In this document: positions 58,721 to 58,746 of the stretch, piece by piece
Layout: each line of letters begins with the position of its first letter
Numbering within the stretch: position 1 is the stretch's first letter
Origin: Escherichia coli
GTDB taxonomy: Bacteria > Pseudomonadota > Gammaproteobacteria > Enterobacterales > Enterobacteriaceae
Length of the DNA stretch: 64,000 bases
Assembly (NCBI RefSeq): GCF_016026235.1
Contig: NZ_CP065613.1
Direction: 5' to 3' (one strand)
Program-made: the position numbers and the translations under genes
Notes under the pieces: model-generated
Databases searched by the model: none
The model's input: only the letters and a program-made list of their open reading frames with translations
Told to the model about the DNA's origin: nothing

Positions 58721-58746
58721 GGGAGGCGCAATGCCTCCCCTTTTTG
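58721..58746 (+). terminator. intra-operon hairpin between nirD and nirC (possible partial terminator/attenuator)
   Basis: gggaggc-gcaat-gcctccc followed by ctttttg. Confidence 0.5.

Follow-up and report, generated by a model that had tools for sequence, protein, structure and literature searches.

A terminator-like hairpin between nirD and nirC of Escherichia coli and its orthology to the intra-operonic terminator of Salmonella

An "intra-operonic terminator" was described after nirD in the nirBDC-cysG operon of Salmonella Typhimurium by Wang, Chao, Matera, Gao, and Vogel (NAR 2020 48:2126; PMC7038943). On northern blots of that operon, the full-length transcript of 5.4 kb was weak, and stronger bands were seen for nirBD (2.8 kb), nirC-cysG (2.5 kb), and cysG (1.4 kb). 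Deletion of the stem-loop and the U-track, which were taken together so that the two functions were not separated, lowered the nirBD transcript, raised nirC-cysG, and reduced the repression of nirC by NarS from ~30-fold to ~5-fold (PMC7038943). [quoted passage not shown] For the 3' ends of nirBD, the authors allow either termination or processing followed by protection. They also refer to a promoter of cysG itself inside nirC, reported earlier for E. coli (PMC7038943). Two further systems are close enough for comparison. One is the class of 3'-end stem-loops by which upstream cistrons are stabilized once an sRNA or RNase E has triggered cleavage, exemplified by the REP element that follows iscR in iscRSUA (PMC7038943). 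There, as at nirD, a polycistronic mRNA can decay discoordinately owing to a structure that ends the upstream cistron; the nirD element differs in being a single-copy terminator-type hairpin and not a REP repeat. The other is the tR2 terminator, whose activity in a reporter was almost entirely repressed with a stop codon 8-9 bp away and became maximal only beyond ~30 bp; the ribosome that follows the polymerase was held responsible for the repression near the stop (PMC4824070).

The locus analyzed here lies in a 64-kb stretch of E. coli DNA (64,000 nucleotides, hereafter the window), and the operon genes and spacer elements given below are on its plus strand. In the open reading frame list, nirB occupies 55845-58388, nirD 58385-58711 (108 aa, TAA stop at 58709-58711), nirC, encoding a nitrite transporter, 58837-59643, and cysG 59662-61035. 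The RefSeq annotation of the identical stretch agrees with the gene identities given for nirD, nirC, and cysG in a preliminary description made from the sequence alone. Positions 58300-58900 matched 5425 of 5426 complete E. coli genomes, where nirB, nirD, and nirC are annotated, and the intergenic sequence of the window is identical to that of MG1655.

The terminator-like hairpin that the preliminary description placed at 58721-58746 between nirD and nirC was confirmed. A 9-nt spacer (58712-58720) separates the nirD stop codon from the hairpin proper (hairpin 1, GGGAGGC-GCAAT-GCCTCCC, 58721-58739), which was recovered from the sequence, by pattern scan, by folding, by covariation, and by Salmonella orthology. 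It is followed by the U-tract CTTTTTG (58740-58746), a C and then five U, which is shorter than the tail of a canonical strong terminator. The stem contains seven Watson-Crick pairs (six G-C and one A-U) around a 5-nt loop; in an alternative register there are eight pairs, with a G.U pair closing a 3-nt loop. The nirC ATG (58837) lies 97 nt 3' of hairpin 1. The computed energy of the hairpin was -13.6 kcal/mol, and that of its 39-nt context was -15.8 kcal/mol (z = -3.3 against dinucleotide shuffles). In a consensus pattern scan of 54000-64000, hairpin 1 ranked second among the terminator-like sites, with the other two strong sites located after tsgA and after cysG, where the operon-end terminator-like hairpin was placed at 61043-61064. 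A site was counted as strong if it had 7 or more perfect pairs, of which 6 or more were G-C, together with a loop of 3-8 nt and 5 or more T in 8 nt. By this definition, the real window gave 12 register hits at 5 distinct places on both strands, compared with a mean of 0.24 strong sites per shuffled 64-kb window, also on both strands. Hairpin 1 is well beyond chance, and its sense-strand position directly after a stop codon adds to this case.

As in canonical intrinsic terminators, including the partial ones found inside operons, there is a GC stem (7-8 pairs, 6 G-C in the transcript), a short loop, and a 3' U-run on the sense strand just past a stop codon. The nirD element is unlike them in that it stands between co-regulated genes and must be leaky, and in that its U-tract is short and interrupted at the first position. 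In the transcript, CUUUUUG supplies five U in the first 8 nt 3' of the stem, a short and weak tract; because it holds only five U and is preceded by a C, intrinsic termination at hairpin 1 may be inefficient. A bidirectional terminator was considered and rejected, as the stem on the minus strand is followed by GUUAAAAC, with no U-run.

In ten Salmonella genomes, the corresponding hairpin reads TAATTAATTTTGGGAGGCGCAACGCCTCCCCTTTTTTGTATTTTTTT. Its computed energy was -14.8 kcal/mol compared with the published -14.9 kcal/mol, and the TTAATT at the Salmonella stop codon agrees with the description in the paper (PMC7038943). Identity to the SL1344 element was assigned from these ten genomes and from the two descriptors of the paper. 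The E. coli and Salmonella hairpins are identical at 18 of 19 bases, and the flanking nirD and nirC genes are syntenic. By sequence and position, 58721-58746 is the E. coli orthologue of the Salmonella intra-operonic nirD terminator. The two elements share the operon, the position right after the nirD stop, the stem GGGAGGC/GCCTCCC, the U-run, and a downstream NarS target, AAGGATAATCAAATG, common to both. They differ at the base next to the loop, which is C in Salmonella and T in E. coli, so that a G-C pair becomes G.U, and in E. coli the U-tract has one U fewer, with no second U-run like that of Salmonella. The Salmonella spacer is ~194 nt long with an ERIC element, whereas that of E. coli is 125 nt long without one, and the distance from the NarS site to the U-tract is ~200 nt in Salmonella and ~85 nt in E. 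coli. A second hairpin (58751-58782) is present in E. coli and not in Salmonella.

The NarS connection extends to E. coli at the level of the target site. An exact-complement search found that MG1655 narS (b4813) contains a perfect 15-nt complement to 58824-58838, the nirC Shine-Dalgarno region AAAGGATAATCAAAT, which runs through the first two bases of the start codon. Both the target at the nirC ribosome-binding site and the NarS gene (in MG1655) are present, as for an orthologue of the Salmonella arrangement. Prediction of an RNA duplex between NarS and the whole spacer returned a meaningless long structure and was discarded. An ERIC-like core, CCCCAGTCACTTACTTTAGTAAGCTCCTGGG, is also present within narS of E. 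coli.

A scan of a single genome for each species with NirD gave 80 Enterobacteriaceae loci. The nirC gene follows nirD in 52 loci, including that of E. coli FDAARGOS_943 (L001), which was fetched separately, and cysG lies directly 3' of nirD in 29 loci. The nirD-nirC spacer is highly variable, ranging from 67 to 402 nt across the 52 species. A GC hairpin of -11 to -19 kcal/mol is kept 5-10 nt after the stop codon in 45 of them, and 41 of these 45 have four or more T among the 8 nt that follow the stem. The exact core of the NarS site, GGATAATCA, was found 5' of nirC in 32 of the 52 species, all of them among the 45 with the hairpin; Klebsiella, Siccibacter, and Atlantibacter are among those that have the hairpin and not the core in its exact form. 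The terminator therefore has a wider distribution than the exact NarS target. Its basic role (termination and stabilization) is probably independent of NarS. In the 29 species without nirC (Enterobacter, Kluyvera, Pseudocitrobacter, and others; loci L030-L036, L041-L058, L061, and L076), the nirD-cysG spacer is ~135 nt long and carries two other hairpins that are well conserved, such as GCCTTTTCAATAGGAAAGGC and CAGCAGGAAAAACCGTATG...CTGCTGTTATCC. The GGGAGGC-type hairpin is retained in a few species (L029, L047, and L077).

Within E. coli, the 39-nt hairpin 1 region is found at a median of one place in each genome, and 4428 records show it in identical form. Hairpin 1 is nearly invariant among divergent E. 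coli and other Escherichia: a C-to-T change in one strain creates a G.U pair, and a loop substitution is present in two sequences. Variation in the Escherichia spacer is found mostly in the apical part of the second hairpin and in the lengths of the T-runs. Across genera, the stem changes in a way that keeps it paired. In a gapless alignment of 40 distinct sequences, 91.9% of stem cells were paired, and compensatory changes on both sides were present in 6 of 9 stem pairs, as in the series from GGGAGGC/GCCTCCC to CGGGGGC/GCCCCCG to GGGCGAGG/CCTCGCCC. The covariation score was 0.41, compared with 0.19 ± 0.016 in shuffled alignments (0 of 500 reached 0.41) and 0.05-0.13 in slid registers. The core eight pairs contained 35 G.U or U.G cells and 4 unpaired cells. 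A G.U pair is a C.A mismatch on the other strand, which places the structure in RNA made from the plus strand; by covariation, the structure is maintained by selection on the transcribed strand, as in intrinsic terminators.

The remainder of the spacer is less constant. In Escherichia, hairpin 1 is followed by hairpin 2 (GTCCTGTAATA...TATTGCAGGAC, 58751-58782; ~-15 kcal/mol, z = -4.5), then by A-TTTTTT and a long U-rich leader (58784-58823) that begins with a T6 run (58784-58789) right after hairpin 2 and continues in T-runs up to the nirC ribosome-binding site. Hairpin 2 was not found outside Escherichia when the nirD-nirC spacers of the 52 species were compared. An E. coli form and an E. albertii form can be distinguished, with conserved basal stems and unrelated loops; between the basal stems there is one compensatory change from G-C to A-U and one change from U.G to C-G. 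Hairpin 2 may be a second, weaker tandem terminator or a 5' stabilizer of the nirC-cysG mRNA processed by RNase E. The U-rich leader is likely a substrate of RNase E or Hfq. Its length varies among E. coli strains, and strain A4 (positions 277-452 of locus L083) carries ~30 extra bases of (TTTTTA)n-like repeats, so the U-rich tract behaves like a microsatellite. A scan of 55000-62000 against Rfam 15 at a permissive threshold gave no match at a family gathering score. A match to sroE, which at 22 bits (E = 0.14) fell below the gathering score of 51, reflected the generic shape of two hairpins plus a U-run; both it and a sub-threshold match to IsrM were rejected as chance.

Transcript data for E. 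coli K-12 were taken from Adams et al. 2021 (eLife, PMC7815308). In DirectRNA-seq with 800-nt windows, coverage at the nirD-nirC junction was 586 upstream and 24 downstream without bicyclomycin (24-fold), and 920 upstream and 149 downstream with bicyclomycin (6-fold). The preliminary description had proposed a step in read depth at this junction as a check on termination. The step is there, and it is partly Rho-dependent; the 6-fold step left under Rho inhibition is compatible with intrinsic termination or with differential stability at the hairpin. The Rho component maps to a termination region at MG1655 3497031 on the plus strand (Rho score 3.95, p = 6e-12; PMC7815308), which corresponds to 29 nt into nirC (58863-58866 region of the window) and not to the hairpin. 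This early-nirC termination was recorded in aerobic LB cultures. It works in series with the intrinsic hairpin and indicates that nirC is poorly translated in such cultures. The curated Term-seq tables (PMC7815308), which cover aerobic LB and M63, have no 3' end at the hairpin, a weak negative since the operon is poorly expressed there, and the TERMITe supplements make no mention of nirD or nirC.

Taken with these data, the hairpin and its U-tract probably form a leaky intrinsic terminator after nirD that also serves as a 3' protector of the nirBD mRNA, a reading that we hold with good confidence. RNA polymerase starting at the FNR-dependent nirB promoter would transcribe the GC stem and the short U-tract, and a fraction would terminate there to give a nirBD-only message, while the remaining polymerases would read through into nirC-cysG. 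Cleavage of the U-rich spacer by RNase E would leave the stem-loop as the 3' terminus of the nirBD fragment, where it would block 3' exonucleases. The U-rich stretch after the stem would be needed for efficient repression of nirC by the Hfq-dependent NarS, pairing at 58824-58838. The net effect would be more NirBD than NirC, with cysG buffered by its own promoter inside nirC. Both functions named in the preliminary description, attenuation into nirC-cysG and a processing or stability role, gain support from the Salmonella orthologue, whose deletion raises nirC-cysG and lowers nirBD in an operon mRNA that RNase E processes in the U-rich region (PMC7038943). That cysG has to be expressed independently of nitrite induction, as was also noted, matches the published internal promoter (PMC7038943). 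The hairpin reading thus stood, while the NarS link, the Rho-dependent component, and hairpin 2 had been missed. For E. coli, we infer that termination, and not only stabilization, takes place at hairpin 1, and that its leakiness would depend on the weakness of the U-tract and on a ribosome terminating 9 nt upstream, which would mask the foot of the stem.

Other explanations for hairpin 1 were weighed against this reading. That it is a chance palindrome, a relic of a REP- or ERIC-type repeat, a DNA operator, or the start of a small gene seems extremely improbable. The nirD-nirC spacer is a hot spot for ERIC-like and REP-like palindromic insertions (loci L007-L028, L038, L059, and L067). ERIC-like cores occur in the spacers of Salmonella, several Citrobacter, and Phytobacter, REP-like palindromes in those of other Citrobacter, and other GC-rich palindromes in Buttiauxella and Cedecea. 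The presence of such REP- and ERIC-like elements in the spacers of Citrobacter, Salmonella, Leclercia, and Phytobacter speaks for a repeat origin. However, in those four genera the insertions, which lengthen the spacer from 67 to 275 nt, sit between the terminator hairpin and the ribosome-binding site of nirC; they are 3' of the hairpin and never replace it in the 45 species that keep it. The hairpin 1 region is moreover single-copy in E. coli genomes, at a median of one place each, so it does not belong to the REP/BIME or ERIC families, and the ERIC core motif present in Salmonella and some Citrobacter spacers was not found in the E. coli spacer. An operator would not be expected to show changes that preserve pairing, including strand-specific G.U pairs. 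A small gene is suggested by a 33-codon open reading frame (58731-58832) whose ATG lies inside the loop of hairpin 1, but the loops of Salmonella and Citrobacter read GCAACG, without the ATG, and the frame in E. albertii ends after six codons. A conserved small protein gene at this place was rejected on the same grounds. The 33-codon frame is presumably the one once called nirE in older literature.

It is distinctly unlikely, though less far-fetched, that hairpin 1 is only a stability or processing element, with no termination, RNase E cutting the spacer, and the stem blocking 3' exonucleases. Production of nirC-cysG is RNase E-dependent in Salmonella (PMC7038943), the E. coli U-tract is short, and no Term-seq 3' end is listed at the site in aerobic cultures, all of which would fit. 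The Salmonella deletion, however, raises nirC-cysG, which is predicted by a loss of termination and not by an upstream fragment that has lost its protection; the T-run found after the stem in 41 of 45 species would be superfluous if the structure were purely a block to exonucleases, and the 6-fold drop in K-12 coverage persists under Rho inhibition. The latter result bears equally on the proposal that polarity between nirD and nirC is essentially Rho-dependent, caused by a long untranslated spacer and poor translation of nirC, with little contribution from the hairpin. The Rho region 29 nt into nirC (PMC7815308) is in its favor. With coverage still falling 6-fold in the presence of bicyclomycin, strong purifying and compensatory evolution of the hairpin across genera, and a clear phenotype of the Salmonella deletion, we give it very little probability; as both mechanisms can act in series, it is more a complement than a rival.

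A more specific version of the leaky terminator can be drawn from the stop-to-stem distance. The stem starts 5-10 nt after the nirD stop in all 45 species, so a ribosome finishing nirD would cover its foot, and by analogy with tR2 the nirD terminator may be tuned by its distance from the stop. The short, conserved distance suggests that leakiness is coupled to translation. On this basis, hairpin 1 might act as a sensor of coupling: a close ribosome finishing nirD would force read-through and uncoupled polymerases would terminate, hairpin 2 in Escherichia would be a back-up terminator or a 5' protector of nirC-cysG, and the U-tract would double as an Hfq landing site that licenses NarS. We consider this extended scheme speculative and rather doubtful. 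If it were true, transcription of nirC and operon-driven transcription of cysG would depend on translation of nirBD.

The element explains how one promoter can give more nitrite reductase (NirBD) than nitrite importer (NirC), an excess that limits nitrite toxicity in the cytoplasm during nitrate respiration, and control of one cistron within an operon by an sRNA depends on it. This was established in Salmonella in 2020, and hairpin 1 had in that respect already been described as an operon element. The additions for E. coli are the orthology, the near-invariance within the species, and the covariation across much of the Enterobacteriaceae, together with a spread wider than that of the exact NarS site and a conserved, very short stop-to-stem distance. 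The current picture is unchanged; a modest and testable refinement is offered by translation-coupled leakiness and a possible role of hairpin 2.

Several minor observations were made in the surrounding sequence. A candidate for the extended -10 promoter of cysG published as lying inside nirC is TGGTATGCT at 59572-59580, ~82 nt 5' of the GTG with which cysG starts; the cysG promoter pattern TGNTANNNT did not occur in the window at a frequency above chance. Downstream of cysG, 61036-64000 contains yhfL, then yhfS and yhfT on the opposite strand. The frl genes, which lie between yhfL and yhfS on the K-12 map, appear to be absent from this place. The best full-length matches were only 97.9% identical, which indicates that the flank 3' of cysG comes from a less commonly sequenced lineage. 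In the K-12 data, a Rho termination region antisense to nirD was listed at MG1655 3496855 on the minus strand, with upstream and downstream coverage of 262 and 12 without bicyclomycin and 405 and 66 with it (PMC7815308). This position corresponds to ~58689 of the window on the minus strand, implying an antisense transcript that crosses the 5' region of nirC and the spacer and ends near the hairpins. A promoter-like site found by pattern scan on the minus strand at 59338-59310 is a possible origin of such a transcript.
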